A stretch of DNA of 64,000 nucleotides from Oscillatoriales cyanobacterium (GTDB lineage: Bacteria; Cyanobacteriota; Cyanobacteriia; Cyanobacteriales; Microcoleaceae). This document shows positions 14,916 through 63,271 of this stretch, in pieces. The stretch covers positions 7,673 to 71,672 of the forward strand of contig RDXX01000023.1 in assembly GCA_004292955.1 (NCBI GenBank). The letters run 5' to 3'. Position 1 is the first letter of the stretch. Each line of letters opens with the position of its first letter. Both the position numbers and the translations under genes were made by a program. Under the pieces are notes generated by a model. It was not told the origin of the DNA. It did not search any database and saw only the letters and a list, made by a program, of their open reading frames with translations.

Positions 14916-15542
14916 ATGAGAGAATTAATCAGAGCTATTCGCGTTACTTTAGTTTTGTGGGGAATCACAGCGATTATTTATCCCTTAATCCTGCTCGCAA
15001 TCGGTCAACTTGCTTTCAATTCCCAAGCAAACGGCAGTTTAATTACCAACCAAGGAGTTGTAGTCGGCTCATCGTTAATCGGTCAGTCTTTCGGCTCGGA
15101 TAAATATTTTTGGGGTCGCCCCAGTACCACAAATTACAGCAGCTTTGCGGCAATAGATTACGACCCCACAAAGGCAGAAAATTTAAGTCAGAGAACGGGC
15201 GTTTCGGGAGCGAGCAATCTTGCTCCTAGCAACTCGGATCTGGTGAAGCGAGGTAATGAAAAAGATGGTTTTCAGGGGGTAGAAGTTGAGTTGGCTCGCC
15301 TCAATTTAGTTGGTATCAAACCGACTGCGGATTTAGTTTACACTTCCGGTTCTAGCCTCGACCCGCACATTAGCGTAGAATCAGCTCGATCGCAAATTGA
15401 ACGGGTAGCAAAAGTGCGATCGGTCAATCTCAATCAAGTCGAAATGTTAGTAGCCAAAAATACAGATAGCAGATTTCTCGGTATTTTCGGCGAACCGGGA
15501 GTTAACGTCCTCAAACTAAATGTGGCTCTCGACGGTTTATAA
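14916..15542 (+). CDS. kdpC: K+-transporting ATPase subunit C
   Basis: QANGSLI...GSSLIGQ...YFWGRPS, SGASNL, TSGSSLDPHIS; likely start MRELIR at 14916 (ORF track 14853). Confidence 0.95.
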   Translation: MRELIRAIRVTLVLWGITAIIYPLILLAIGQLAFNSQANGSLITNQGVVVGSSLIGQSFGSDKYFWGRPSTTNYSSFAAIDYDPTKAENLSQRTGVSGASNLAPSNSDLVKRGNEKDGFQGVEVELARLNLVGIKPTADLVYTSGSSLDPHISVESARSQIERVAKVRSVNLNQVEMLVAKNTDSRFLGIFGEPGVNVLKLNVALDGL

Positions 15543-15660
15543 TACTCTGTGGTCAGTAGTCAGCAGTCAGTAGTGAATAGTCATTAGTCATTAGTCATTA
15601 GTCAGGTAGGGGCGGTGCCCCATGCCCGCCCTCTTAGTAGTCATTGGTAATCGGTAATTG

Positions 15661-15750
15661 ACTGTCAACCGTCAACCGTCAACTGTCAACTATCAACTGC
15701 CAACTGCCAACTGCCAACTGTCAACTGTCAACTGTCAACTGCCAACTGCG
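15661..15750. repeat. Heptamer tandem array (AACTGTC/AACTGCC)n
   Basis: Seen directly; abuts the kdpD ATG. Confidence 0.9.
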
Positions 15751-16893
15751 ATGATTCACTCTAGCGAACTCAGTAACAATTCCGACGCAATTTACGCCCA
15801 ACCAAATCGCGGTTACGATCGCCCTCACCGCCGGGGAAAGCACAAAATCTTTATCGGAATGGCCCCCGGTGTCGGCAAAACTTTCCGAATGCTGGAAGAA
15901 GGGCACAGACTCAAATCTGAAGGCATTGATGTCGCCGTTGGACTGTTAGAAACTCACGGGCGGAAAGAGACAGCAGCTAAAGGCGAAGGACTAGAAATAG
16001 TCCCGCGAAAAGAAATGCTGCACGGCGAAAAAGCACTTACCGAAATGGATACTGAAGCCCTAATAGTACGCCGCCCTCAACTAGCATTAGTAGACGAACT
16101 GGCTCATACAAACGTTCCCGGTTCTCTGCGAGAAAAACGATATCAAGATGTCGAAGAAATTCTGAAAGCAGGGATAGATGTTTTCTCTACCCTCAACATT
16201 CAACACATAGAAAGTCTCAACGATTTAGTAGCGAGAATTACGGGAGTTGTAGTGCGAGAGCGAGTACCCGATCGCATTCTCGAAGAAGCTGACGAAATAG
16301 TCGTTATTGATGTCACGCCCGAAACCTTAGAAGAACGGTTGCGAGAAGGCAAAATCTACGCTCCTGAAAAAATAGAACAATCTTTAAAAAACTTTTTCCA
16401 GCGCCGTCATTTAATCGCATTGCGAGAACTGGCGCTGCGGGAGGTAGCAGATAGTGTTGAAGACGATGCAGCAACTTTAAAAGGTCAATCTTGCAACATT
16501 CACGAACGAGTTTTAGTATGCGTATCGACTTTTCCTAATTCCTTGCAACTGCTGCGGCGGGGTGCAAGGCTGGCGAACTACATGAATGCCCCATTTTATG
16601 CTTTGTTTGTGGATGCTCCCGATCGCTTCTTAACAAAATCCGAAAGCTTGCACGTTGAAACTTGCCAGAAGCTTTGCCAAGAATTTAACGGCCAATTTCT
16701 GCGGGTGGAAAGTCCGAATATCGCACAAGCAATTTCTGAGGTAGCTAAACAGTATCGGATTACTCAAATTGTGATCGGCGAAAGCCAGCAATCACGCTGG
16801 AAATTGCTGTTTCGGGGTTCTTTGACTCAACAGTTAGTGCGATCGCTCAAACACGTAGATTTGCACATCATCTCTACGGAAAAAAGTCGGTAG
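15751..16893 (+). CDS. kdpD: Truncated KdpD (N-terminal KdpD domain plus USP domain, no kinase domain)
   Basis: RGKHKIFIGMAPGVGKT, LVDELAHTN, TLNIQHIESLND; start at 15751 because the upstream extension is a heptamer array. Confidence 0.92.
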   Translation: MIHSSELSNNSDAIYAQPNRGYDRPHRRGKHKIFIGMAPGVGKTFRMLEEGHRLKSEGIDVAVGLLETHGRKETAAKGEGLEIVPRKEMLHGEKALTEMDTEALIVRRPQLALVDELAHTNVPGSLREKRYQDVEEILKAGIDVFSTLNIQHIESLNDLVARITGVVVRERVPDRILEEADEIVVIDVTPETLEERLREGKIYAPEKIEQSLKNFFQRRHLIALRELALREVADSVEDDAATLKGQSCNIHERVLVCVSTFPNSLQLLRRGARLANYMNAPFYALFVDAPDRFLTKSESLHVETCQKLCQEFNGQFLRVESPNIAQAISEVAKQYRITQIVIGESQQSRWKLLFRGSLTQQLVRSLKHVDLHIISTEKSR

Positions 16894-20392: not shown

Positions 20393-21037
20393 TTATTGCG
20401 ATGCGATTGGTTTCACCCCAATTAATAAAGCGAGTTCCCGCCACTTCCAATAACAGTCTGCATTGTCAAAACCAATTTCTCTAAACCAGCGCAGTTGTGT
20501 TTCCACATCCAGCAATTTATTAGAAGGATCTTCACCCTCTTTGCTGATACCCAGTGCCTCTCGAAACTTCTCATGCAAAGCCTCTGTTGGGGACGCTACG
20601 TGCTCCAAATTGCAAAAAATGCCTCCGGGTTCCAAAAGCTCGAAAATCTCGGCGTAAAGCGAACGTTTGCGATCGTCCTCTACGTGATGGATGGCAAAAC
20701 TAGAAACGATCGCATCAAACTTGCCCAAATCCGGCAGAGGTGCGTCAAAATTGTGCTCGATTACCGTGACAGTATTGTCATCAGCAAAGCGAATGCGGGC
20801 TTTTTCCAGCATAGTTGGCGAAAAGTCGATCGCCACAGATGCAACATTCGGGCGATCGCACTTCAGCAAACCCAACAACCGCCCATCACCCGTACCCACA
20901 TCCAGAATCCGCTTGACATCTTTCGGCACTTCCTCCAACAAAACCGCCTCACCCTCAGTGCGGTGAGGAATACCATCAGCCTTAGCAAGATACCACAAAG
21001 CGTGTTCCGCAGAACTCCAAAGATTAACTTGACTCAT
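20393..21037 (-). CDS. Class I SAM-dependent methyltransferase
   Basis: ILDVGTGDG motif I, IDFSPTML, FDAIVSSFAIHH. Confidence 0.9.
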   Translation of the reverse strand: MSQVNLWSSAEHALWYLAKADGIPHRTEGEAVLLEEVPKDVKRILDVGTGDGRLLGLLKCDRPNVASVAIDFSPTMLEKARIRFADDNTVTVIEHNFDAPLPDLGKFDAIVSSFAIHHVEDDRKRSLYAEIFELLEPGGIFCNLEHVASPTEALHEKFREALGISKEGEDPSNKLLDVETQLRWFREIGFDNADCYWKWRELALLIGVKPIASQ

Positions 21038-21166
21038 AAACAGTTGACAGTTGACAGTTGACAGTTGACAGTTGACAGATGAGTGCGAGGTTTTTAAGAC
21101 GGGGATTTAAACCTCTCCATAAAAACAATCCGCCCGCACCTGAAGGGGGCTAATAACCCTTGATAT

Positions 21167-22361: not shown

Positions 22362-23816
22362 ATGCTCCTTTCCCCCTCTGGCGCCAGCAAACTCAAAGAA
22401 TCCTTAAAAGAAAAAGTATTCTTCGGGAATGAGCCAACCCCGGAACTCATAGCCATCTTACTGATTTATTTCGTCCAAGGCATCCTCGGACTAGCCCGCT
22501 TAGCCGTCAGCTTCTTCCTCAAAGACGAACTCGGCATGACTCCCGCCGAAGTCTCAGCCATGCTGGGCGTCGTCGCCATACCTTGGATTATCAAACCCTT
22601 GTTCGGCTTCATGTCCGACGGGTTGCCCATATTCGGCTACCGCAGACGGCCTTATATCGTCCTCTCGGGGCTGTTGGGAACGGCAGCATGGGTGGGGATG
22701 GCCACAGTCGTACACACGCCCTTAGCGGCCACAGGGGCGATCGCCCTAAGTTCCGTTTCACTAGCCGTCAGCGACGTAATCGCCGACTCCCTAGTAGTAG
22801 AAAGAGCGAGAAAGGAAACAGTTAGCGACGCCGGTTCCCTGCAATCCTTGTCTTGGGGCGCATCAGCCATTGGCGGACTAATTACCGCTTACCTCAGCGG
22901 TTCCCTGCTGCAACACTTCAGCACCCACACCATCTTTTTAATCACTGCATCTTTCCCGCTAATCGTATCAACAACAGCCTGGTTAATTACCGAAGAAAAA
23001 GTCAACAAAAGAACCGACTTTGAAACAGTAAAAGACCAACTCAAACAACTGCGGCAAGCTGTTGCCGAAAAAACAATTTGGTTGCCCACCGCCTTTCTAT
23101 TTCTGTGGCAATCCACACCAAGCTCGGACTCCGCCTTCTTCTTTTTTAGCACCAACGAATTAGGCTTTCAGCCAGAATTTCTCGGACGAGTGCGCCTCGT
23201 CACCAGCATAGCCGCCCTCGTTGGCATTTGGCTGTTTCAGCGCTACCTCAAAGCAATTCCATTTCGAGTCATTTTCGGCTGGTCAACAGTCATTGCAAGT
23301 GCCTTGGGCATGACTACATTATTATTAGTAACTCATGCCAACCGAGCATTAGGAATTGACGACCAATGGTTCAGCATCGGAGACAGCCTGATCCTGACAG
23401 TAATCGGACAAATTGCTTATATGCCCGTGCTGGTACTATCAGCGCGGTTGTGTCCTCCAGGCGTCGAAGCAACCTTATTTGCAGTGCTGATGTCTGTCAC
23501 CAATTTAGCAGGAATTATTTCCTACGAAGGCGGTGCAATTTTGACACACTGGCTCGGAATTACCGATCGCAATTTCGACAACCTCTGGCTGCTAGTAGTC
23601 ATCGCCAACCTCTCCACACTGCTACCCCTCCCCTTCTTAAACTGGCTCCCGGCAGAAAGCACAGAAAGCGGCGATCCAAACTACCAACAATCTCTCCCAG
23701 TATTAGAACCCGAACTGGGCTGTGCAAAACCGGGCGGACAGCATTTCATGCCCGAATACTTTCCCGACTTAGTACCGACATCAATTCCCGAAACCCGCAC
23801 CGTAGAAAGCAAATGA
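22362..23816 (+). CDS. Folate/biopterin family MFS transporter
   Basis: PWIIKPLFGFMSDGLPIFGYRRRPY, DVIADSLVVER, LCPPGVEATLFA. Confidence 0.92.
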   Translation: MLLSPSGASKLKESLKEKVFFGNEPTPELIAILLIYFVQGILGLARLAVSFFLKDELGMTPAEVSAMLGVVAIPWIIKPLFGFMSDGLPIFGYRRRPYIVLSGLLGTAAWVGMATVVHTPLAATGAIALSSVSLAVSDVIADSLVVERARKETVSDAGSLQSLSWGASAIGGLITAYLSGSLLQHFSTHTIFLITASFPLIVSTTAWLITEEKVNKRTDFETVKDQLKQLRQAVAEKTIWLPTAFLFLWQSTPSSDSAFFFFSTNELGFQPEFLGRVRLVTSIAALVGIWLFQRYLKAIPFRVIFGWSTVIASALGMTTLLLVTHANRALGIDDQWFSIGDSLILTVIGQIAYMPVLVLSARLCPPGVEATLFAVLMSVTNLAGIISYEGGAILTHWLGITDRNFDNLWLLVVIANLSTLLPLPFLNWLPAESTESGDPNYQQSLPVLEPELGCAKPGGQHFMPEYFPDLVPTSIPETRTVESK

Positions 23817-23981
23817 AGGAAGAAGAAAGAAGAAAGAAGAAGGAAGAAGGAAGAAGGAAGAAAATAGACTGCGAATATCTTGATAGTTTTCTTTCTGCTA
23901 TTTTTCTCTCCTTTATTTCTTTCTTTCTCTCTGCGCTCTCTGCGCCCTCTGCGGTTAAATCAATAAAAGCTTATTCTACCA

Positions 23982-29346: not shown

Positions 29347-29557
29347 GGAATGGGGCATGGGGCATGGGGAATGGGGCATGGGGCATGGGGAATGAGTAGT
29401 ATTTAAGGATTAATGGCTAATAGTTTCTACTATCGCAGTCATTTAAGAATCTTTTAAGAATTACTGATTACCGATTGCCAATTACCAATGACCAATGACC
29501 GATTACCAATGACCAATGACCAATGACCAATGACAGATTACCAATTACCAAAGAACC

Positions 29558-29773
29558 ATGACTTACTTTCGCCGGCGCGTTTCGCCAATCAAACCAGGAG
29601 ACCCGATCGACTATAAAGATGTCGATTTGCTCAAAAAATACGTCACAGAACGCGGTAAAATCTTGCCCCGCCGGATTACCGGTTTGACGGCAAAACAACA
29701 GCGCGACCTGACCCGCAGCATCAAAAGAGCAAGAATTGTAGCTTTGATGCCCTTCGTAAACCAAGAAGGCTAA
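29558..29773 (+). CDS. rpsR: 30S ribosomal protein S18
   Basis: [26 protein letters not shown]. Confidence 0.98.
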
Positions 29774-29908: not shown

Positions 29909-30075
29909 CAAAATCTCAAAAGTTAAAAATTAAAGCACAAAAAGCAGAACTTTTTAGATGTTAGTTTTGACAATTGATTTAAAAAATGTAAACATCCAAA
30001 ATCTAAAATCGGAAGCAAAGAAACTCGATAAGTGGCAACTGTAAAAATCCAAAATCTCAAAAATAAAGCGGGCAA

Positions 30076-32085
30076 GTGGAGAAGGGAACGTTAGTAGAAT
30101 TTAGAGTGCACGGCGACCGCCGCCTGGCCGTTGCCGATCGCCCTGACGGCAAGAAAAACTGGGTAGTGGTAGACGAAAACGGTCAACCGCACAGCATTCC
30201 GCCAAAACAAATCAGCTATGAAGCAGTCGGAGAAACTTACAAACCCTCCGACATTTCCAAATTTCTTAAAGAAGTAGAAGCTTACTCAGATCCGTCGAGT
30301 CTAGAAGTAGCTTGGGAACTTCTAGTGGGCGACGGAGAAAATACAGATCCAGAAGCCCTGGCTATGCTGCTATTTTCCGATCGCACTCCGGCGCAATGTT
30401 ATGCAGCTTATTGTTTGCTGTCCACAGATAAACTGTATTTTAAACAAAAGGGCGATCGCTACGAACCGCGACCAGTTGCCCAAGTAGCCGAAATCAAACA
30501 CCAGCAAGAAGTAGAACAGCACCGACACCAAGAATCCCAAGGATTTTGGGATCGAGTTAAACGGCGGCTGGCTGGGGAAAATAATGTAGATTGGGCAACT
30601 AGCGATCGAACTCGCCTCGATGCCCTAGAACGCTTTGCTACCCTCGGAGAAGAAGCAACTCACCGCACGCCGGCCTTAGAAACTTTAGCCAGCTTACAAC
30701 GTCCCGAAAACCCCGAAGCAGCATTTCAACTCCTAGTCGATCTCGGCCTGTGGAGTCCCCACGAAAACCTGTTTTTGCGGCGAAGCCAAATTCCGCTACA
30801 ACTATCGGCAAAGGTATTAGAAGTAGCGCAAAGCTGCCTAGAAGAACCCTCAACCGACTCAGACACAGATCGTCTCGATTTAACTCACCTCAAGGTTTAC
30901 ACGATCGACGACGAAAGCACTACGGAAATCGACGACGGACTCAGCCTAGAATTCCTCGAAAACGGCCAGCAGCGTCTGTGGATACACATAGCAGATCCGA
31001 CCCGCTTGCTTTCCCCCGGAGACGAACTCGACCTCGAAGCCAGAAAGCGCACCACTACAGTGTATCTGCCCACGGGCATGATCCCGATGTTTCCCCCAGC
31101 TTTGGCAACTGGGCCGATGAGTTTAATTCAAGGTAAAGAGTGCAGCGCCCTCAGCTTTAGTGTCACCTTAGATGAAATCGGCGCGGCCCAAGATTACAGC
31201 ATCCATATCAGCAAGATCAAACCCACCTATCGCTTAACCTACGATGACGTAGACGAAATGCTGGAGTTGGGAATTGAAGCAGAACCGGAAATAAGCGCGA
31301 TCGCCTCGGCGGCCAAACTGCGTCAAAAATGGCGCGAAGCCCAAGGCGCCATCAGCATTTTCATGCCCGAATCCGTCATCAAAGTCCACGGCGACGAAAT
31401 CAAAATCCACGTCATCGACGACTCCACAGCCAGATTGCTAGTAGCAGAAATGATGATTTTAGCTGGCGAAGTCGCCGCCCGCTACGGTCAAACTCACAGC
31501 CTGCCCATACCCTACCGCTATCAGCCGCAGCCGGAACTCCCCCCAGAGGAAGAACTGCTGGCCGTGCCCGCTGGCCCAGCCCGCGCTTGCGCTGTACGTC
31601 GCTGTATGCCCCGCAGCGAAATGGGTCTGACCCCCGGACGCCACGCAGGTTTAGGTTTGGAATCCTACACTCAAGTTACTTCCCCGATCCGCCGCTATAC
31701 CGACTTGCTGACTCACTTCCAAATTAAAGCCCACCTGCGGGGCGAACCACTGCCTTTTTCCGCCCAAGAAATACAGGATATTGTGATGTGTCTCGGTACC
31801 GCAGTTAGAGAAGCCTCTACCGTGGAACGCCAAACAAACCGTTATTGGGGATTGGAATATTTGCGGCGCAATCCTGATGAGGTTTGGGAAGCTTTGATGC
31901 TGCGCTGGTTGAGGGAAGATAGCAATCTGGCTTTGATTTTGTTGGAAGAGTTGGGTTTGGAGTTGGCGATGCGATTTGGTCGATCGGTCGAAATTGGCGA
32001 TCGGCTAGAAGTCAAAGTCACTCACTGCGATCCGCGATCGGACGTGATTAACTTCCAAGAGATGATTTTTGAAGCAGCACAATAG
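30076..32085 (+). CDS. RNB-domain exoribonuclease (RNase II family)
   Basis: TIDDESTTEIDDGLS catalytic motif, HIAD, YTQVTSPIRRYTDL. Confidence 0.95.
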   Translation: MEKGTLVEFRVHGDRRLAVADRPDGKKNWVVVDENGQPHSIPPKQISYEAVGETYKPSDISKFLKEVEAYSDPSSLEVAWELLVGDGENTDPEALAMLLFSDRTPAQCYAAYCLLSTDKLYFKQKGDRYEPRPVAQVAEIKHQQEVEQHRHQESQGFWDRVKRRLAGENNVDWATSDRTRLDALERFATLGEEATHRTPALETLASLQRPENPEAAFQLLVDLGLWSPHENLFLRRSQIPLQLSAKVLEVAQSCLEEPSTDSDTDRLDLTHLKVYTIDDESTTEIDDGLSLEFLENGQQRLWIHIADPTRLLSPGDELDLEARKRTTTVYLPTGMIPMFPPALATGPMSLIQGKECSALSFSVTLDEIGAAQDYSIHISKIKPTYRLTYDDVDEMLELGIEAEPEISAIASAAKLRQKWREAQGAISIFMPESVIKVHGDEIKIHVIDDSTARLLVAEMMILAGEVAARYGQTHSLPIPYRYQPQPELPPEEELLAVPAGPARACAVRRCMPRSEMGLTPGRHAGLGLESYTQVTSPIRRYTDLLTHFQIKAHLRGEPLPFSAQEIQDIVMCLGTAVREASTVERQTNRYWGLEYLRRNPDEVWEALMLRWLREDSNLALILLEELGLELAMRFGRSVEIGDRLEVKVTHCDPRSDVINFQEMIFEAAQ

Positions 32086-32241
32086 GATTTTAGATTTTAG
32101 ATTTTAGATTTTAGATTTTGGATTGCCAAAATCTTACTGACAGGAATTGTGCGTTTGCGGCTATAAACCAATAAGCTTAAGTTAGCAATCTCATTGAAGT
32201 GGGTTTTGTTTCTCTAGGGGCGGTTGCAAGCGCCGTCTTAT

Positions 32242-34026: not shown

Positions 34027-34480
34027 TTAGTCCGAATCTGCAATTAGGAATAGGGAAGTAGGAAGAGAGACGCAGGAAGAGAGAAGCAAAAATAAGGATG
34101 ATATAGCAACCGCCACATAGGTTAGGACATAAATCATGTCATGAATAGATCCTATAACCCTTTAGCATAAACGGTTTGATTCTCGTACTATGTAACTGTC
34201 AACTGTCAACTGTCAACTGTCAACTGTCAACTGCTATATATTGCCTTTGGGTTGCCACTCTATTTTTAATTCGTGCAGCAAACAACTTGTTATAAACTTG
34301 GGGAAGATGTATAATAAGTAACTAAGTATCAGTGCCGGTTAATCACTGATAATAAAGTTGTTTTCGTTCGGCGTTTTAAGATTTTGAGGGCTGCCGTCCT
34401 CAGTACAAACTTAATTAGAATTATTTAACCGGACTCGATCTAACAATAAGCGCTCGATAATGAACCAACAAAAATAACCG

Positions 34481-35374
34481 ATGAATAACAAACCTATCGA
34501 TTTATCTACTAACTCAATTAAAGTAAAACTGCTGAATCATTTAGCGCAAGAATTGCTCACCCCGCTCACTTCTGTCCTCGGCATGGCAAGCGTATTGAAC
34601 CAAGAAATTTACGGCCCCTTAACGAGCAAGCAAAAAGAATATATCGACGTGATCCAAGACAGCAGCCGATCTTTGCGATCGCTAGTTGAAGAAATTTTGG
34701 AACTGGCAGATCTAGACGATACCGCTTTCACATTGAAGCGAACCGCAGTTGATATAGAAACTTTGTCTCAGCAAGTTGTGACAACCCTGTCGCCAGCAGC
34801 CTCTAGACGAGAGCAAGAAATTAACTTGTCAATGGGGCCCGGGCCGCGCATCTGGCTGGCCGATAAGGATAAAGTTCAGCAAATGCTGCACCACTTAATT
34901 TTTAGCATTATTCAATCGGCTGGGGCAGGCAGCGTGATTCGAGTCCACGTTTCTCGGAAACAAGACGGTATCAATATCGGAGTTTGGGTTTTTCATCCTT
35001 GGTTGGGTGAAAGTTTGCCCCATGCTAAACTCTACTCCGACTACTTGTTGAAGGTCGGAGCCGATCGCGGTGCGCGATCGAACTCCGAAACCGACTCCCT
35101 GGAATTTGAACCGCCACTTCGGTCACAGACACAGGCTTCGCAGCGATTAACGCTGGCGTTTTCTGAGTTGGCGGCTTTGGTGGCCGAGAATGCTGCGGAT
35201 ACGGCACCTGTGTTAGCTGGTTACGGCGCTAGGGAACGCTTGGGGCTGCTGCTTTGCTGCCAGTTGGTGGAAATTCAAGGCGGCAAACTCTCGATTCAAG
35301 GCACTCCAGAATCTGGATATCGCTACGTGCTCTGGCTCCCCTGTACCAATGCTACCGAGTTGTTGGAAAGATGA
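34481..35374 (+). CDS. Degenerate histidine-kinase-like protein (HisKA/HATPase fold, no sensor domain)
   Basis: LAQELLTPLTSVLGM where SHELRTPL is expected; degenerate N and G boxes. Confidence 0.75.
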   Translation: MNNKPIDLSTNSIKVKLLNHLAQELLTPLTSVLGMASVLNQEIYGPLTSKQKEYIDVIQDSSRSLRSLVEEILELADLDDTAFTLKRTAVDIETLSQQVVTTLSPAASRREQEINLSMGPGPRIWLADKDKVQQMLHHLIFSIIQSAGAGSVIRVHVSRKQDGINIGVWVFHPWLGESLPHAKLYSDYLLKVGADRGARSNSETDSLEFEPPLRSQTQASQRLTLAFSELAALVAENAADTAPVLAGYGARERLGLLLCCQLVEIQGGKLSIQGTPESGYRYVLWLPCTNATELLER

Positions 35375-35476
35375 AGTCAGTTGACAGTTGACAGTTGACA
35401 GTTGACAGTTGTTATTGGTTACTTGTTATTGGTTACTTGTTACTTGTTATTAGTTATTTGTTGTTATTACAGCCAA

Positions 35477-35548
35477 TAACGAACAACGAATAACGAATAA
35501 CGAATAACGAACAACGAATAACGAATAACGAATAACGAATAACGAATT
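35477..35548. repeat. Heptamer tandem array (AACGAAT)n
   Basis: Seen directly, immediately upstream of ictB. Confidence 0.9.
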
Positions 35549-35555
35549 TAAAGAA

Positions 35556-36995
35556 ATGAATTCAGTTTGGCAACAGTTAACTCTGGCAAATTTGCCGCTC
35601 TCTCAGTGGCAAAGTGGCAGTTATTTATTGAATTTGGCGATCGGCAATGCGCGCAGTTGGCGGCAGAGTAGCTGGCTGATGCAGTGGGCCGAGCCCCTGG
35701 GTTTTGTTTTGCTCGCCTTGACGTTCGGTATGGGCCCATTTGTAAACAACGCCCTGGTGGGTGTGTTGATGGCTGCTGCCGCTGCGTTTTGGGTGCTGCT
35801 GACTGTTTCGGACGATCGCGCGATCGCCCTCACACCCATTCACTTGCTGGTACTTTTGTACTGGGGCATTGCTACCGTCGCCACAGCAATGTCGCCGGTG
35901 AAAGCCGCCGCTTTTACAGGCTGGACGAAGCTAACGCTGTATTTGCTATTTTTTGCACTGATGGCGCGGATATTGCGAGATTCCCGTTTGCGATCGTGGT
36001 TAATAGCCGTATATCTTAATGTTGCTTTAATTGTCAGTTTCTACGGCGTGCGGCAGTGGATTGATAAAGTGCCACCATTAGCTACTTGGAACGATCCGAC
36101 TTCTACTCAAGCCGATGTCACCCGAGTTTACAGTTTTTTGGGCAATCCCAACTTGCTCGGTTCCTATTTGCTACCAGCCATTGCCTTGAGCGCCGCCGCA
36201 CTTTTTGTGTGGCAAGGATGGGGAACCAAACTTTTAGCGTTGACGATGCTGGTAGTGAATTGCGCGTGTTTGCGCTACACCGACAGTCGCGGTGCTTGGA
36301 TCGGTTTTGTGGCTGTGCTGGTGGTGTTTTTAGTCCTGCTTTGGTACTGGTACAGCCCTTTAATGCCTAGGTTCTGGCGCACTTGGGCGCTGCCGTTAGG
36401 GTTAGGAGGTTTGGCTGGAGCGTTAATTTTGGGAGTAGCTTTGGTGCCAGCCTTGCGCGATCGAGTTTCGAGTATGTTTGTCGGCCGCGGCGACAGCAGC
36501 AACAATTTTCGGATTAATGTTTGGACGGCGGTGATTGACATGATTCGCGATCGGCCAATCCTCGGCATTGGGCCCGGAAATACTGCTTTTAATAAAGTTT
36601 ATCCGCTTTATATGAAGCCAAAATTCACTGCTTTGAGCGCTTATTCTGTGCTGCTAGAAATTGCCGTCGAAACTGGTTTTATCGGTTTAATGTGTTTCCT
36701 GTGGCTGATGACTGTTACCGTCAATCAAGGTTTGTTGCAGATCAAAAAATTGCGCGACGCACAATTTAACAGCTCTCATTTAGAGGAAGAATCCCCAAAT
36801 CTCAAATCAAATCAGGGGTTTTGGTTGATTGGGGCGATCGCCACTTTAACTGGTATGATGGCTCACGGTTTTGTCGATACAGTTTGGTATCGGCCGGAAG
36901 TTAATATGCTTTGGTGGTTGATGGTGGCGATTATTGCTAGTTTTTATAGCAATTCTCAGCAGCAGCAAGATTCAGGTTTGACACAGGGCGAGTAG
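35556..36995 (+). CDS. ictB: IctB-family membrane protein (O-antigen ligase-like)
   Basis: RVYSFLGNPNLLGSYL, DSSNNFRINVW, GIGPGNTAF, HGFVDTVWYRP. Confidence 0.93.
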   Translation: MNSVWQQLTLANLPLSQWQSGSYLLNLAIGNARSWRQSSWLMQWAEPLGFVLLALTFGMGPFVNNALVGVLMAAAAAFWVLLTVSDDRAIALTPIHLLVLLYWGIATVATAMSPVKAAAFTGWTKLTLYLLFFALMARILRDSRLRSWLIAVYLNVALIVSFYGVRQWIDKVPPLATWNDPTSTQADVTRVYSFLGNPNLLGSYLLPAIALSAAALFVWQGWGTKLLALTMLVVNCACLRYTDSRGAWIGFVAVLVVFLVLLWYWYSPLMPRFWRTWALPLGLGGLAGALILGVALVPALRDRVSSMFVGRGDSSNNFRINVWTAVIDMIRDRPILGIGPGNTAFNKVYPLYMKPKFTALSAYSVLLEIAVETGFIGLMCFLWLMTVTVNQGLLQIKKLRDAQFNSSHLEEESPNLKSNQGFWLIGAIATLTGMMAHGFVDTVWYRPEVNMLWWLMVAIIASFYSNSQQQQDSGLTQGE

Positions 36996-57541: not shown

Positions 57542-59857
57542 GTGCAAGAAGACTTCCGACTGATTGTTGACTTAGTTCTAGTTCTCGCTGCTGCCGCAGC
57601 AGGAGGACTCTTTGCATCGTTGTTGCGACAGCCGGTAATTCTCGGATACCTCCTGGGAGGGATCGTAGTTGGGCCGGCCGGTTTGGGGCTGATTAAAGAA
57701 TTAGTTCAGGTAGACACCCTGGCAGAATTTGGTGTGGCTTTTCTGTTGTTTGCTTTGGGAGTAGAGTTTTCATTCGCCGAACTAAATCGAGTTAAAGCAA
57801 TTAGTCTGGGCGGGGGGGGCTTGCAAATTGTGCTGACGATCGCCATTACTACTGCAATTTCCTTGGGTGTAGGCTGGGTAGAATCCCCTGCCCAAGGGGT
57901 GTTTTTAGGGGCGATCCTGTCGCTTTCCTCGACGGCGGTTGTACTCAAATGCTTGATGGAACGCAATGAAGGCGGTACTTCCCACGGACAAGTCATGCTG
58001 GGAATCTTGGTAGTTCAAGATTTGGCTTTGGGGCTAATGCTGGCAGTTTTGCCGGCCCTCAATCAGCCCGCAGAGGCGATCGGCATGACGGTAGTCTGGG
58101 CCCTGGTGCGGATCGGATTATTTGCTGCGGGTGCAGTAGTAGCGGGCATTTGGATCGTACCGCAGTTGCTGCGCTACCTCGCGAGAACAGAAAGCCGGGA
58201 ACTGTTTTTGCTGGGAGTTGTGGTTTTGGCTTTAGGGATTGCGCTGCTGACAGAATATCTGGGTTTCTCGATCGAGATGGGCGCATTTGTGGCGGGTTTA
58301 ATGATTTCGGAGGTGGAATATGCCGACCAAACTCTAACTTATGTCGAGCCTTTGCGAGATATTTTTGCATCCTTATTTTTTGTTACCATCGGAATGTTAA
58401 TCGACCCGGTGTTTCTCTGGAACCATCTAGAGTTAATTCTAGGACTGGTATTTCTAGTATTTGTCGGCAAATTCTTGATTGTAACGCCGATCGTCCGATT
58501 ATTTGGCTATCCCCTAAAAACAGCATTAATCGCAGGTTTGGGCTTAGCTCAAATCGGAGAATTTTCCTTTGTACTCGCTAGTTCTGGCCAAGCTATGGGA
58601 CTGGTTTCGCGAAACGTTTACCTATTAATTTTAGGAACGACAGCAGTCACCTTGGTGCTGACGCCGTTTGTATTGAGAAGCGTGCCACAGTTATTCAAGT
58701 GGGCGGAAAATTTCGGGCCTTTGCAGCGCTATTTTGACCAAACATCTCAACCTGTCGAAATAGCTGAAACTTTGCCGGAACAAAATCATGTTGTGGTTTG
58801 TGGCTACGGGCGAGTTGGCAGAAATTTAGTCAAAGTGCTGCAAAGCCGCAACTGTTCAATTGTGGTAATCGACGAGTCGGAAAGCAGAATTCAAGAATGC
58901 AGAGTGTCAGGAATTCCTTACATTTACGGGAATGCTGCTAGCTTGCACGTATTGGAAGCCGCCGGGGTAGAACGCGCCAAAGCAATGGCGATTACTCTTC
59001 CCGATCCGATGAGCACTCGCTTGTGTCTGAAGCGGGCTTTAGAATTAGTCCCGGATTTGGATATTGTGGTGCGCGCCAACAAAGATAAAGATATTGAACT
59101 GCTTTACCAACTGGGGGCTTGGGAAGTTGTGCAGCCGGAGTTTGAGGCTAGTTTAGAACTGTCTGCCCACTTGCTAGCTGGTATGGGTTTGTCAGCAATG
59201 GCTATTGGGCGAGATGTGCAGCAAATTCGCAGCAGCCGCTATCTGGAATTGCGGCCGGCGCGGGAACCTTTGGCGGTTTCGCGGGATTTGAAAGTGGCGG
59301 TTCGAGATCTCAACGGCGATTGGTACAACTTACCGGAGGGCTCTCCCATTGGTGGGATGACTCTGGAAGAAACTAACTTGCGGCAGTTGACAGGGGTCAG
59401 TGTGATGGCGATCGTCCGCGAAGATGGCGAGGAAATTGATTATCCTAACGGGAAGGCTGCTTTGCTGTCGGGCGATCGACTTTTGGTCGTTGGTGAACCG
59501 GAAGAACTGATCAGTTTTGAGTTGCTGGCGAAGGGCGAAGTTGCTGTCCCCGAGGGCGACAGTTCTTGTCAGTGGTTGAGGTTACCAGCCAACAGTCCTT
59601 GGGTTGGCCAAAAACTGTCAGAGGTAGATTTGCTCACTCAGTATGGGGTGCAGGTGCGGGCGATCCGCCGGGAAGGGAAGTTTACTCGCTGGCCGGATGG
59701 AACTACTGATTTGCAAGAGGGCGATCGTTTGCTGCTGTGCGGCGGCTTCTACGAGCTCGGCTTGATGCAGCGGACGGCCTCGCCTCCGCTGCCGCAACCA
59801 GCCTTAAAGCTGCCTTTTGTCACCGCCCAAGTTAGCGAAAAGCTATTTAGCGATTAG
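57542..59857 (+). CDS. CPA2/KefC-like cation:proton antiporter with TrkA-N and two TrkA-C (RCK) domains
   Basis: LSSTAVV, LVVQD, VCGYGRVG; GTG start at 57542. Confidence 0.92.
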   Translation: MQEDFRLIVDLVLVLAAAAAGGLFASLLRQPVILGYLLGGIVVGPAGLGLIKELVQVDTLAEFGVAFLLFALGVEFSFAELNRVKAISLGGGGLQIVLTIAITTAISLGVGWVESPAQGVFLGAILSLSSTAVVLKCLMERNEGGTSHGQVMLGILVVQDLALGLMLAVLPALNQPAEAIGMTVVWALVRIGLFAAGAVVAGIWIVPQLLRYLARTESRELFLLGVVVLALGIALLTEYLGFSIEMGAFVAGLMISEVEYADQTLTYVEPLRDIFASLFFVTIGMLIDPVFLWNHLELILGLVFLVFVGKFLIVTPIVRLFGYPLKTALIAGLGLAQIGEFSFVLASSGQAMGLVSRNVYLLILGTTAVTLVLTPFVLRSVPQLFKWAENFGPLQRYFDQTSQPVEIAETLPEQNHVVVCGYGRVGRNLVKVLQSRNCSIVVIDESESRIQECRVSGIPYIYGNAASLHVLEAAGVERAKAMAITLPDPMSTRLCLKRALELVPDLDIVVRANKDKDIELLYQLGAWEVVQPEFEASLELSAHLLAGMGLSAMAIGRDVQQIRSSRYLELRPAREPLAVSRDLKVAVRDLNGDWYNLPEGSPIGGMTLEETNLRQLTGVSVMAIVREDGEEIDYPNGKAALLSGDRLLVVGEPEELISFELLAKGEVAVPEGDSSCQWLRLPANSPWVGQKLSEVDLLTQYGVQVRAIRREGKFTRWPDGTTDLQEGDRLLLCGGFYELGLMQRTASPPLPQPALKLPFVTAQVSEKLFSD

Positions 59858-60026
59858 TCATGGGGCATGGGGCATCGGGCATGGGGCATCGGGCATCGGG
59901 CATCGGGCATCGGGCATCGGGCATGGGGCATTGGTGCTGTCCGCGCGATCGAACGTTATTAGTCAGACGGAAGACGGAAGAGGAAAGACGGAAGAGGGAA
60001 GCCCTGTAGGGGATGTAACGGATGTA

Positions 60027-60423: not shown

Positions 60424-60634
60424 ACTGGGAAATGGGTAAATTGGTTATTAGTCATTAATCATTAGTCATTAGTCATCGGTCATTAGTGCTGTCCCCGATC
60501 GCGAACAGCATTAGTCATTTTTTTGCTATCAACTGTCAACTGCTTGCGGGTTCGCGTAGACGAAGGGTCAACTGCTTTACCCGATCGCCCTTCGGCTACG
60601 CGAGCGGATAAACGCAGTCGTTGGGTCAACTATT

Positions 60635-60679
60635 AACTGTCAACTGTCAACTGTCAACTGTCAACTGTCAACTGTCAAC
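60635..60679. repeat. Heptamer array (AACTGTC)n upstream of dapF
   Basis: About 6 units. Confidence 0.9.
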
Positions 60680-60693
60680 AGAGGTTTGTTTTT

Positions 60694-61572
60694 ATGTCGA
60701 TCGAGTTTGCGAAGTATCACGGACTGGGCAATGATTTTATTCTGATTGACAACCGCCACTCCTCAGAACCAGTTTTAACACCAGAACAAGCTGTGTCCAT
60801 GTGCGATCGACATTTTGGGATCGGCGCAGACGGCGTGATTTTTGCTCTTCCGGGTCAAAACGGCACTGACTATACGATGCGGATTTTTAACTCCGACGGT
60901 TCGGAACCGGAAATGTGCGGCAACGGGATTCGCTGTTTGGCTAAGTTTATCGCCGATTTGGAAGCAGCGGAAATTCACCCCCCCCAGCCCCCCCTTGCTA
61001 AGGGGGGGAGTAAATCTAAGACTGAGTATCGCATCCACACTCTGGCGGGTGTGATTAGCCCCGAATTGCGATCGGACGGTCAGGTTAAGGTGGATATGGG
61101 ACTTCCCCGGTTGCTGGCTGCGGAAATTCCGACAACTTTGGCTGCACCAGATGCCAAAGTGATAGATGTGCCGATCGAAGTTGCTGATAAATCTTGGTCT
61201 GTTACCTGTGTCAGCATGGGAAATCCTCACTGCATTACGTTTGTAGAAGATGTTTCGGCTGTGGCTTTGGAAACTCTCGGCCCTCAATTTGAACACCACC
61301 CAGCCTTCCCGCAGCGTATAAATACCGAATTTATTCAAGTGATACGACGGGACTACGTAAAAATGCGGGTGTGGGAAAGGGGCGCAGGTGTTACTCTAGC
61401 TTGTGGGACTGGTGCTTGTGCTGCTGTGGTGGCTGGGGTGTTGGTCGGAAAGTGCGATCGGACAACTGCTGTTGAACTCCCCGGTGGCGTTTTGGAAATC
61501 GAATGGGCAGAAGTTTCTGGGCGGATTTACATGACTGGGCCAGCACAGCGAGTATTTACTGGTTGTCAGTAG
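60694..61572 (+). CDS. dapF: Diaminopimelate epimerase
   Basis: [32 protein letters not shown]. Confidence 0.98.
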
Positions 61573-61686
61573 TCAGTTGACAGTTGTCAGTTGACAGTTG
61601 TCAGTTGACAGTTGACAGTTGACAGTTGACAGTTGACAGTTGACAGTTGACAGTTGACAGTTGACAGTTGACAGTTGACAGTTGTC
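61573..61686. repeat. Heptamer array (GACAGTT/GTCAGTT)n downstream of dapF
   Basis: About 16 units; reverse complement of the upstream array. Confidence 0.9.
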
Positions 61687-61816
61687 ATTGGTCATTGCTC
61701 AAAAGGAGTTTTTTGTGGAATTAACAAACAAGAAAAATTCTTAAATTCCAAATTTTTCTTTAATTCTTTAATTATCAAGAATGCTCAATGACTAATGCCT
61801 TGCGCCTTGTGAAGTC

Positions 61817-61942: not shown

Positions 61943-62056
61943 CATAGGCTGAAGACTAATGACTAATGACAACTGTCAACTGTCAACTGTCAACTGTCAA
62001 CTATCAACTGACTAAGCCTGAATTCTCAAATCTAAAATCTAAAATTAAGTAGGTGG

Positions 62057-63205
62057 ATGTGCATGGCTGGAGGTATTTATCTGATTCAGGACGACGACAG
62101 GCTGGTAGAAATGATGGAACAGCCCTACGACTCGGAAGACCAGTTACAAGACTTGCTTGTAACTTATCCTAATCTGATTGCCGGAGATCAAATCGATCGG
62201 GCGACGGCGCGGAAGTGGCTGTTAATTTCACGGGAATCAGTGCCCACCGATGAGGAAACTGCCGTCCAATGGTCGCTGGATCATTTGTTTCTCGACCAAA
62301 ATGCAGTTCCTACTTTGGTGGATGTCAGGCGCACTCCTAATGCTGCACTCCGGCAAAAAGTTTTAGGTCAGTCGATCGACTATGCTGCTAATGCGTTGGT
62401 TTACTGGCCAATAGATTCAATTATTGCTCTGTTTGAAGCCAATTGTCGCGATCGGGGTCGCGATCCCGAACAGATTTTTGAAGAGTTTCTCGGTGCGGAT
62501 GCTAATGAAGACCTATTTTGGCAGAAAGTTAAAACTAATTTGCAAGCCGGTAAAATTCGCTTAGTATTTGTAGCAGACGAGATTTCCGCTGAAATGCGCC
62601 GAGTTGTGGAATTTCTCAACGAACAAATGGACCCGGTTGAAGTTTTGGCCCTGGAAATTAAGCAATATGTAAGTGAAGACGGTTTGAGAACCTTGGTTCC
62701 CAGAGTGATCGGTCAGACAGCCGAAGCACAGCATAAAAAATCCAACGCAATGCGCGAAAGAAGGCGCTGGGATGAATCGTCATTTTTTGCGGAAATCAAA
62801 GCCAGACAAGGCGCGGACGAGGCGCAAATGGCAAGAGCTATATACCTTTGGGCAAAAAGTCAAGAACCCGAAATTCAAATCCATTGGGGAACGGGGGACA
62901 CCTACGGCGGTTTCGCCGCCGGGTTGCATCACAGAGGCAGAAAACCATATCAGTTATTCACTGTAGATATTGCTGGCAGAATGGAGATTTCTGCTGACAA
63001 TTACGGTTCCCAACCGCCATTTAATGCAGAAAAAAATTGGCTGGAATTGAGAAATAAGCTAAGTTCGATCGGTCTTTCGCTACCTACAGAACCGGGCGAG
63101 AGAAGGTCGCCGAGTCTGGCTTTATCTACTTTGGAAGACGAATTTGCCCTCCAGCAAGTTATGGAAACGTTCAACTGGGCGATCGAGCAAATTAAAACGT
63201 TATAG
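62057..63205 (+). CDS. Hypothetical protein with NucS-like PD-(D/E)XK endonuclease fold
   Basis: EDQLQDLL...[16 protein letters not shown]...GQSIDYAA...RLVFVAD. Confidence 0.6.
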
Positions 63206-63271
63206 TCATTGGGAATTGGGAATTGGGAATTGGGAATTGGGCATTGGGAATTGGGAATTGGGCATTTAAAT

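Follow-up and report, generated by a model that had tools for sequence, protein, structure and literature searches.

We analysed a 64,000-nucleotide (nt) stretch of DNA, hereafter the window, which spans positions 7673-71672 of contig RDXX01000023.1 in a 7.3 Mb draft genome of the filamentous cyanobacterium Microcoleus, and followed the tandem arrays of 7-nt units (heptamers) found there through the whole genome. The arrays obey one mirror-symmetric rule: the strand that leaves the nearest end of a protein-coding gene is G-rich and C-poor, with an excess of T over A as a weaker term. Orientation is coded by G versus C composition, not by the sequence of the unit. Judged from the related genomes compared, the unit sequence turns over between species while array position and polarity persist.

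Tandem Repeats Finder (TRF) was run on the whole genome, overlapping calls were removed, and arrays of at least three copies were kept. Period 7 accounted for 2739 TRF rows covering 113 kb, against at most 818 rows for every other period. The non-overlapping set comprised 2167 heptamer arrays in 186 unit families, 2048 of them intergenic and 119 inside called genes; the commonest families by array count were AACTGTC (500), AAAATCT (286) and AAGAAGG (140). Genes were called with a purpose-written program using a 3-periodic fifth-order Markov score trained on long open reading frames (ORFs), which returned 5212 genes and missed small ones. The ends of genes with at least 150 amino acids and a high coding score were treated as high-confidence ends.

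An earlier note on the window had proposed that array orientation is polar with respect to genes, and the genome-wide tally bore this out. In the AACTGTC family, AACTGTC itself was on the coding strand in 136 of the 172 arrays nearest starts, and its complement in 274 of the 296 nearest stops (136:36 at 5' ends versus 22:274 at 3' ends, Fisher 4e-59). The same held for nearly all of the 24 most frequent families. Of the arrays within 10 nt of high-confidence ends, 150 of 151 beside starts and 221 of 224 beside stops had more G than C on the outward strand (read 5' to 3' away from the gene). The C content of this strand was only 5-10%, and the bias fell to about 50% beyond roughly 100 nt from the gene end.

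The rule for starts and the rule for stops are the same statement made from the two ends of a gene, so that gene direction, which the earlier note took to be the determinant, is not needed. The rule held in all four gene arrangements, at tandem, convergent and divergent junctions alike, and in a logistic fit starts and stops carried equal weights, with G-C skew counting for about 2.2 per unit and T-A skew for 0.57. Arrays inside genes showed no position-dependent polarity, and repeats of other periods merely a weak one. None of the 45 tRNA and transfer-messenger RNA (tmRNA) genes had a heptamer array within 30 nt, against about 9 expected from the rate at protein-gene ends; the two arrays within 80 nt of such genes both had the usual polarity, too few to judge polarity there.

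Spacers with several arrays ran from G-rich to C-rich, on either strand, in 483 of 506 cases, and adjacent arrays followed the order G-then-C 384 times versus C-then-G 24 times. The median gap at the G-to-C switch was 67 nt; the arrays adjoin the genes and usually leave unique DNA in mid-spacer. They are slippage arrays of the type known as short tandemly repeated repetitive (STRR) sequences, filling dispensable parts of spacers right up to start and stop codons. As a separate observation on placement, arrays before starts (leader arrays, within 30 nt) occurred at 9-14% at tandem and 4-5% at divergent junctions and were thus two to three times commoner at the former, and arrays after stops (trailer arrays) were about as common at tandem as at convergent junctions (13-19%).

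In the window, 33 of 38 arrays fitted the polarity overall, and 22 of 22 within 30 nt of a called gene end. TRF confirmed the arrays that the earlier note had placed around dapF, a HisKA kinase-like gene and the RNase II gene, and Pfam assigned the products of all three genes. The features concerned are as follows.

60625-60679, plus strand: (GTCAACT)7.9, the (AACTGTC)n leader array before dapF, located by TRF and ending 14 nt before the ATG at 60694
60694-61572, plus strand: dapF (diaminopimelate epimerase), identified by orthology and Pfam
61562-61684, plus strand: (GTTGACA)17.6, the trailer array of dapF, located by TRF, with G>C on the sense strand
61970-62045, plus strand: leader arrays (CAACTGT)5.9 and (TCTAAAA)3.1 preceding the 62057/62063 gene, each with a G-poor sense strand
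63208-63266, plus strand: trailer array (ATTGGGA)8.4, starting 2 nt past the stop at 63205, with a G-rich sense strand
34194-34233, plus strand: (AACTGTC)5.7 upstream of the HisKA kinase-like gene, located by TRF
35378-35547, plus strand: spacer after the kinase-like gene made up entirely of three arrays, with a single switch from G/T-rich to A/C-rich
29983-30062, plus strand: short AAAATCT-type repeats upstream of RNase II, located by TRF
32086-32124, plus strand: trailer array (GATTTTA)5.6, beginning at the RNase II stop, located by TRF
23804-23863, plus strand: purine array (AGAAAGA)8.7, which overlaps the stop at 23816; its sense strand has G>C
15552-15748, plus strand: (GTCAGTA)7.7 followed by (ACTGTCA)12.6, a typical G-then-C junction, located by TRF
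21040-21082, minus strand: (ACAGTTG)6.1, 2 nt upstream of the minus-strand gene start at 21037, reading CAACTGT on the sense strand

The dapF leader array, G-poor on the sense strand, directly adjoins a conserved AGAGGTTTGTTTTT-ATG block, and the last codons of the gene together with its stop (61570-61572, TAG) fall within the trailer array. At the junction 15552-15748, the first array lies 9 nt past the stop at 15542 and the second ends 2 nt before the start at 15751. The spacer behind the kinase-like gene follows a stop at 35374 and holds (CAGTTGA)4.9 (35378-35411) and (TTGTTAT)7.7, both G/T-rich, and then (AATAACG)10.4, which ends 8 nt short of the start at 35556. The array at 21040-21082 shows that the rule is also obeyed on the minus strand. 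The earlier note had set the purine run after 23816 apart as an exception; its outward strand contains more G than C, and it fits the rule as restated here. The array at 34194-34233 lies 247 nt 5' of the kinase-like gene start and 167 nt 3' of the preceding stop, too far from both gene ends for confident assignment to either.

Many arrays also showed a super-period of 14 or 21 nt in which unit variants alternate regularly (e.g. 29478-29562, 59859-59931 and 35411-35462). Genome-wide, the TRF output has 391 rows of period 14 and 340 of period 21.

The persistence of polarity under change of unit was clearest at dapF, for which the closest loci were found in Microcoleus spp. (Oscillatoriales, non-heterocystous). 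In 15 of 15 genomes of the same genus, a heptamer array in G/T-rich (keto) orientation lies 0-20 nt past the dapF stop, although its unit may be CAGTTGA, ATTAGTC, GTCATTG, ATTAGTG, GTTAACA, TTGATAG or CATTGGG. G was at least as frequent as C in 14 of the 15, and the AGTCATC exception has T>A. The stop codon itself is often supplied by the array (...FTGC-Q* versus ...FTGC-ISD*). In the wider set, an array was present at the dapF stop in 30 of 30 Microcoleus-like loci versus 1 of 50 Nostocales loci; the six polarity misfits among the Microcoleus-like loci were all near-ties (AGTCATC, AACAGTT). An array upstream of dapF was found in five genomes only, always of the CAACTGT type. Complementary units on both sides of the gene were confined to this genome, and the other congeners kept the polarity.

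The dapF locus has two further features. Several congeners share a conserved A/T-rich block with an inverted repeat (GGAATTnACAAACAAnAAAAATT...) at 61690-61760, 3' of the variable trailer, and this block may be a terminator or belong to a small inverted-repeat element. Within the gene, an in-frame insertion at 60964-61005 (about 14 residues in the alignment) is encoded by a C7...G7 palindrome (CACCCCCCCCAGCCCCCCCTTGCTAAGGGGGGG), and dapF is here 15 codons longer than in most congeners. The insertion is absent from M. vaginatus HSN003 and Nostocales and present in one to several tandem copies in other Microcoleus; it looks like a small palindromic element tolerated within the coding region.

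At RNase II, most congeners kept the (GATTTTA)n trailer, while one has (GAAGGAA)n in its place, and the AAAATCT motifs upstream were conserved in congeners without expansion. The last units of this trailer and the downstream CCAAAATCT form a 9-bp hairpin at 32110-32150 (AGATTTTGG-ATTG-CCAAAATCT), which is also kept in most congeners.

Beyond single loci, a congener (G007, 400 kb) had 17:1 arrays in the expected orientation at 3' ends and 8:0 at 5' ends, and a genome of another genus (G024, 38% GC) had 16:5 and 9:1, all within 30 nt of gene ends and all small samples. The Nostoc punctiforme plasmid pNPUN01 served as a control with NCBI annotation, the Nostoc PCC 7120 plasmid alpha being too array-poor, and all seven of its unambiguous arrays fitted. 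The word (AACTGTC)4 occurred 672 times here, 3-306 times in 18 congeners, and was essentially absent from other genera of the order. The excess is a lineage-specific bloom of one unit family, and this variation among genomes indicates that unit families bloom and fade fast while the polarity persists.

As to its cause, we tentatively put first that the polarity reflects selection on the transcript, with G-poor leaders before starts and self-folding, G/U-rich trailers after stops. RNA entering an ORF would have to be G-poor, offering neither G-C nor G-U pairs and no start-like triplets or triplets resembling the Shine-Dalgarno (SD) motif, and such a leader could leave the ATG open to ribosomes that initiate directly there without an SD motif. 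RNA leaving the ORF would be G/U-rich and would fold on itself, via G-U pairs or G tracts, directly behind the stop. This fold would probably protect the 3' end or aid transcription stop in an organism without Rho; no Rho gene was found in the genome.

The leader arrays inspected as examples end 1-12 nt before the ATG, with no SD motif visible. When 266 leader arrays were flipped in silico, the unpaired probability over positions -20 to +15 fell from 0.61 to 0.455 (array-free genes have 0.50 around the start), and the minimum free energy shifted from -16 to -25 kcal/mol, in every tested family including CCTTCTT. Trailer RNA folds at -0.16 kcal/mol per nt in the sense orientation versus -0.045 for the complement, and the sense strand gave the more stable fold in 365 of 438 arrays. 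Trailers of the dapF type, such as (GTTGACA)17.6, fold as sense RNA because GUUGAC pairs with itself through G-U wobble pairs. In examples and energies alike, the trailers do not resemble intrinsic (Rho-independent) terminators, since the fold is weak, contains G-U pairs and lacks a U tract. Among variant units the outward strand tends to gain G and lose C, and transitions and transversions both contribute; this looks like selection rather than deamination alone. We also count in favour of a filter on the transcript the avoidance of tRNA and tmRNA flanks, and the retention of polarity under change of unit at dapF in 15 congeners, in G007 and G024 and on pNPUN01.

Several points weigh against this explanation. 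The arrays are presumed to be transcribed, as parts of leaders and trailers. Purine-only trailers (AAGAAGG) do not fold and yet are oriented 45:13, so that self-folding does not suffice to explain the polarity at 3' ends. Identical composition weights at the two ends of genes would have to arise from two unrelated selective pressures. A skew gradient of the same polarity extends at synonymous sites for hundreds of nt into the coding sequence, and this intragenic gradient fits an asymmetry at the level of the DNA or the transcription unit better. Finally, the fold asymmetry follows almost automatically from richness in G/T versus A/C and is therefore no independent confirmation of the mechanism.

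A serious rival, which we rank second and regard as somewhat unlikely, is that a polar process acting on DNA sets the orientation, so that arrays arise or expand only with the structure-prone, G/T-rich strand leaving the gene. This could come about by slippage that depends on which strand is single-stranded, or by polar synthesis or repair from intergenic breaks, and effects on RNA would then be secondary. The mirror symmetry, the equal weights at starts and stops and the validity of the rule in all four gene arrangements speak for such a process, as do the polar but non-folding purine trailers, the bloom of a single unit in this genome only, and the replacement of unrelated sequence by standard-unit arrays at orthologous sites. 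Variant units have an excess of C>T and A>G on the outward strand at both ends; T>G and C>A are favoured too, however, and deamination does not produce these. The GC and TA skews at synonymous sites have the same polarity, persist where no array is near and depend on a real adjoining spacer, but the gradient inside genes is about threefold stronger at 3' than at 5' ends and thus asymmetric. A break-centred model predicts the opposite of the observed layout, in which arrays adjoin genes and unique DNA usually lies in mid-spacer, and tRNA genes lack adjoining arrays. We know of no process or enzyme anchored at ORF ends, which also weighs against it. Selection on the transcript and a DNA-level process may act jointly.

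The skew gradient itself was followed at third codon positions over the whole genome. Between the first and the last decile of genes, the sense-strand GC skew at these positions climbs from -0.10 to +0.15 and the TA skew from -0.03 to +0.10; examples in the window are 30076-32085 and 57542-59857. The gradient persists in genes without a tandem array within 150 nt. It peaks at the ends of transcription units (+0.19 to +0.25 before a convergent neighbour) and vanishes at tight operon junctions (+0.06 at 3' ends and +0.03 at 5' ends).

A broader proposal, which we consider doubtful, would make the polarity the footprint of a general, possibly cross-phylum, one-way element. A polar process working on DNA from the ends of ORFs would write the short-unit arrays or lengthen them; alternatively, the arrays would be directional insulators, admitting RNA polymerase and ribosomes to a gene on G-poor RNA and halting whatever comes out of it on G-rich RNA. 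Leader and trailer families that are complementary could in that case make up a 'heptamer code' acting in trans, and the synonymous skew gradient would belong to the same phenomenon.

It is improbable that the arrays are directional protein-binding sites on RNA or DNA, or partners that pair in trans, processed G/U-rich trailers with the complementary A/C-rich leaders of other genes, giving family-specific regulons. The same families do occur in complementary orientation as leaders and trailers (AACTGTC 136/274, AATTACC 48/44, CCTTCTT 42/45), and a duplex of any G-array with any C-array would have about -17 kcal/mol. In Nostoc PCC 7120, deletion of leader heptamers is reported to alter reporter output (preprint 10.1101/2022.06.06.494920), and binding of S1, Csp or Csr to TAACTGA leaders has been suggested (MacGregor, 2015; PMC4679880). 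Against this, it is G versus C and not the unit that sets orientation, there are 186 unit families, and the signal of pairing in cis is absent from both same-family counts and duplex energies. Units at one orthologous site vary between congeners, which argues against a sequence-specific reader or a conserved regulon.

The earlier note had suggested, besides directional protein binding, that the 5' and 3' untranslated regions (UTRs) of one gene pair and close the mRNA into a loop, and had described genes as bracketed by inverted pairs of arrays. Complementary units do flank both dapF and the kinase-like gene in the window, and in most congeners RNase II has AAAATCT motifs upstream and (GATTTTA)n downstream. 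As a rule, however, cis pairing was rejected, since neither same-family pairs nor duplex energies were in excess, and we consider it very improbable. Only 7 of the 128 genes with arrays at both ends have the same family on both sides, against 9.7 expected, and the native 5'-3' duplex energy of -14.4 compares with -13.6 in re-paired controls (z = -0.52). Across spacers there were 21 same-family pairs among 285 (19.9 expected), at the G-to-C switch 27 (24.7 expected), and the leader-trailer duplex energy matched that of re-paired controls (z = -0.42). At dapF, where some congeners have arrays upstream as well as downstream, the two units are complementary in this genome alone, and the others keep the polarity on both sides with non-complementary ones. 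The array upstream of the kinase-like gene sits 247 nt away from where that gene starts. The inverted pairs seen around single genes arise by chance from the polarity rule and are no mark of an mRNA loop; the composition required of a leader is the reverse complement of that required of a trailer, so a gene looks bracketed whenever an abundant unit flanks both sides. Of the proposed tie to transcription, a link to the transcript stays plausible, while pairing between the two UTRs lacks support, with neither same-family enrichment nor duplex excess.

That the pattern is an artefact or a consequence of coding, with stop codons in arrays setting ORF boundaries or local composition being amplified, is scarcely credible. 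Arrays often provide the actual stop codon, stop codons contain no C so that C-poor strands are rich in them, and the gene caller was home-made. Yet units lacking stop codons on both strands kept the polarity, by 112:3 after stops and 78:1 before starts, G>C prevailed 45:1 where the stop-bearing strand was the C-rich one, and units without start codons were oriented 118:4. Stop-codon supply and start-codon avoidance were therefore rejected as drivers, codon-free units being equally polar and the conflict cases following G>C. Amplification of local composition was rejected because the outward G-C skew of non-repeat spacer DNA is just 0.03-0.14. The rule was also kept for high-scoring genes of at least 150 amino acids, for genes confirmed by orthology and Pfam, and with NCBI annotation. 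A bias of chromosome strand or replication was rejected, as arrays are even between strands (255 versus 245). Hexamers resembling the -10 element had no peak relative to leader arrays, hence no fixed promoter position. An account based on Rho-dependent termination was dropped as well, since the genome lacks a Rho gene.

STRRs are runs of tandem 7-nt units that filamentous cyanobacteria carry in many scattered copies, most of them between genes; known since 1990, they have no accepted function. Mazel et al. reportedly described them in that year in heterocystous Nostocales, with the units CCCCAGT, TTGGTCA and CAACAGT; that work is not known to state a general polarity rule. The arrays studied here share the head-to-tail heptamers, the many dispersed and mostly intergenic copies and the filamentous host, but differ from the STRRs of heterocystous forms in their host, Microcoleus, which is non-heterocystous, and in their dominant unit, AACTGTC. 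Of the older unit classes, that of CAACAGT (AACAGTC) is represented here by 25 arrays and that of TTGGTCA (AATGACC) by 13. Repetitive extragenic palindromic (REP) sequences and bacterial interspersed mosaic elements (BIMEs) of enterobacteria are likewise abundant intergenic repeats next to gene ends; they are transcribed and stabilise upstream mRNA by folding at its 3' end, the role that the trailers may play here. REPs are individual imperfect palindromes spread by REP-associated tyrosine transposases (RAYTs) and have no leader counterpart, whereas the arrays here are 7-nt direct repeats that fold only between units through G-U pairs. Expansion and contraction of structure-forming tandem repeats such as triplets depend on the strand that carries the structure-prone sequence and on the direction of replication. 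This instability is the model behind the DNA-level rival, although there the direction of replication sets the polarity and here the nearest ORF end does.

The closest published precedent is the study of Rehm et al. (2015; PLoS One, PMC4692102) on heptamer simple sequence repeats (SSRs), GGGAATC in Xanthomonas and GGGGA(C/T)T in Nostoc PCC 7120, in which the G-rich strand is non-coding upstream and coding downstream 'irrespective of the ORF's orientation'. Those repeats and the arrays here have in common that they are intergenic heptamers 0-50 bp from ORFs, some lying over a stop codon, and that they obey the same mirror rule. There, one quadruplex-forming unit per organism was at issue, with the G-quadruplex (G4) as the lead explanation; here, there are 186 families, mostly non-G4, and the rule follows G-C skew quantitatively, has almost no exceptions at gene ends and survives the turnover of units. 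G tracts of at least three, which a quadruplex takes, are rare: GGG occurs in just 57 of 438 trailers, and the main unit GACAGTT has single Gs. Because the rule covers repeats unable to form quadruplexes, the quadruplex explanation is insufficient. Nor did we find the frequent convergent inverted pairs of the same unit reported for Xanthomonas, as the counts across spacers and at the G-to-C switch given above show.

MacGregor (2015; PMC4679880) described direct repeats of TAACTGA in marine Beggiatoaceae and some cyanobacteria, placed in forward orientation a few nt upstream of starts, with downstream genes mostly lacking an SD motif, and proposed a translational role. The unit resembles the AACTGAC/AACTGTC leaders found here. 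Those sets, however, have only 2-6 copies, lie mainly on the 5' side and come with no statement of a trailer or composition rule, and a small Microcystis sample looked mixed. For Nostoc PCC 7120, leader heptamers have been linked to recF and recO expression, and a binding factor has been speculated on (preprint 10.1101/2022.06.06.494920).

The earlier note knew of no published description of the polarity. For a single G-rich heptamer the same placement had in fact been reported by Rehm et al. (2015). In the library searched, nothing published was met that states a general G-versus-C rule valid whatever the unit, describes how it is conserved when units turn over, or tests pairing; an earlier statement of the general rule, as in Elhai et al. 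(2008) on small dispersed repeats or Mazel et al. (1990), is possible. The present analysis extends the single-unit observation to many units that do not form quadruplexes. With a near-absolute, unit-independent rule, with SD-less leaders that adjoin the ATG and with a conserved polarity, the question of array function becomes directly testable. The rule also cautions against taking complementary arrays around a gene for a designed hairpin, and it can be used to place gene starts and stops in repeat-rich cyanobacterial genomes.

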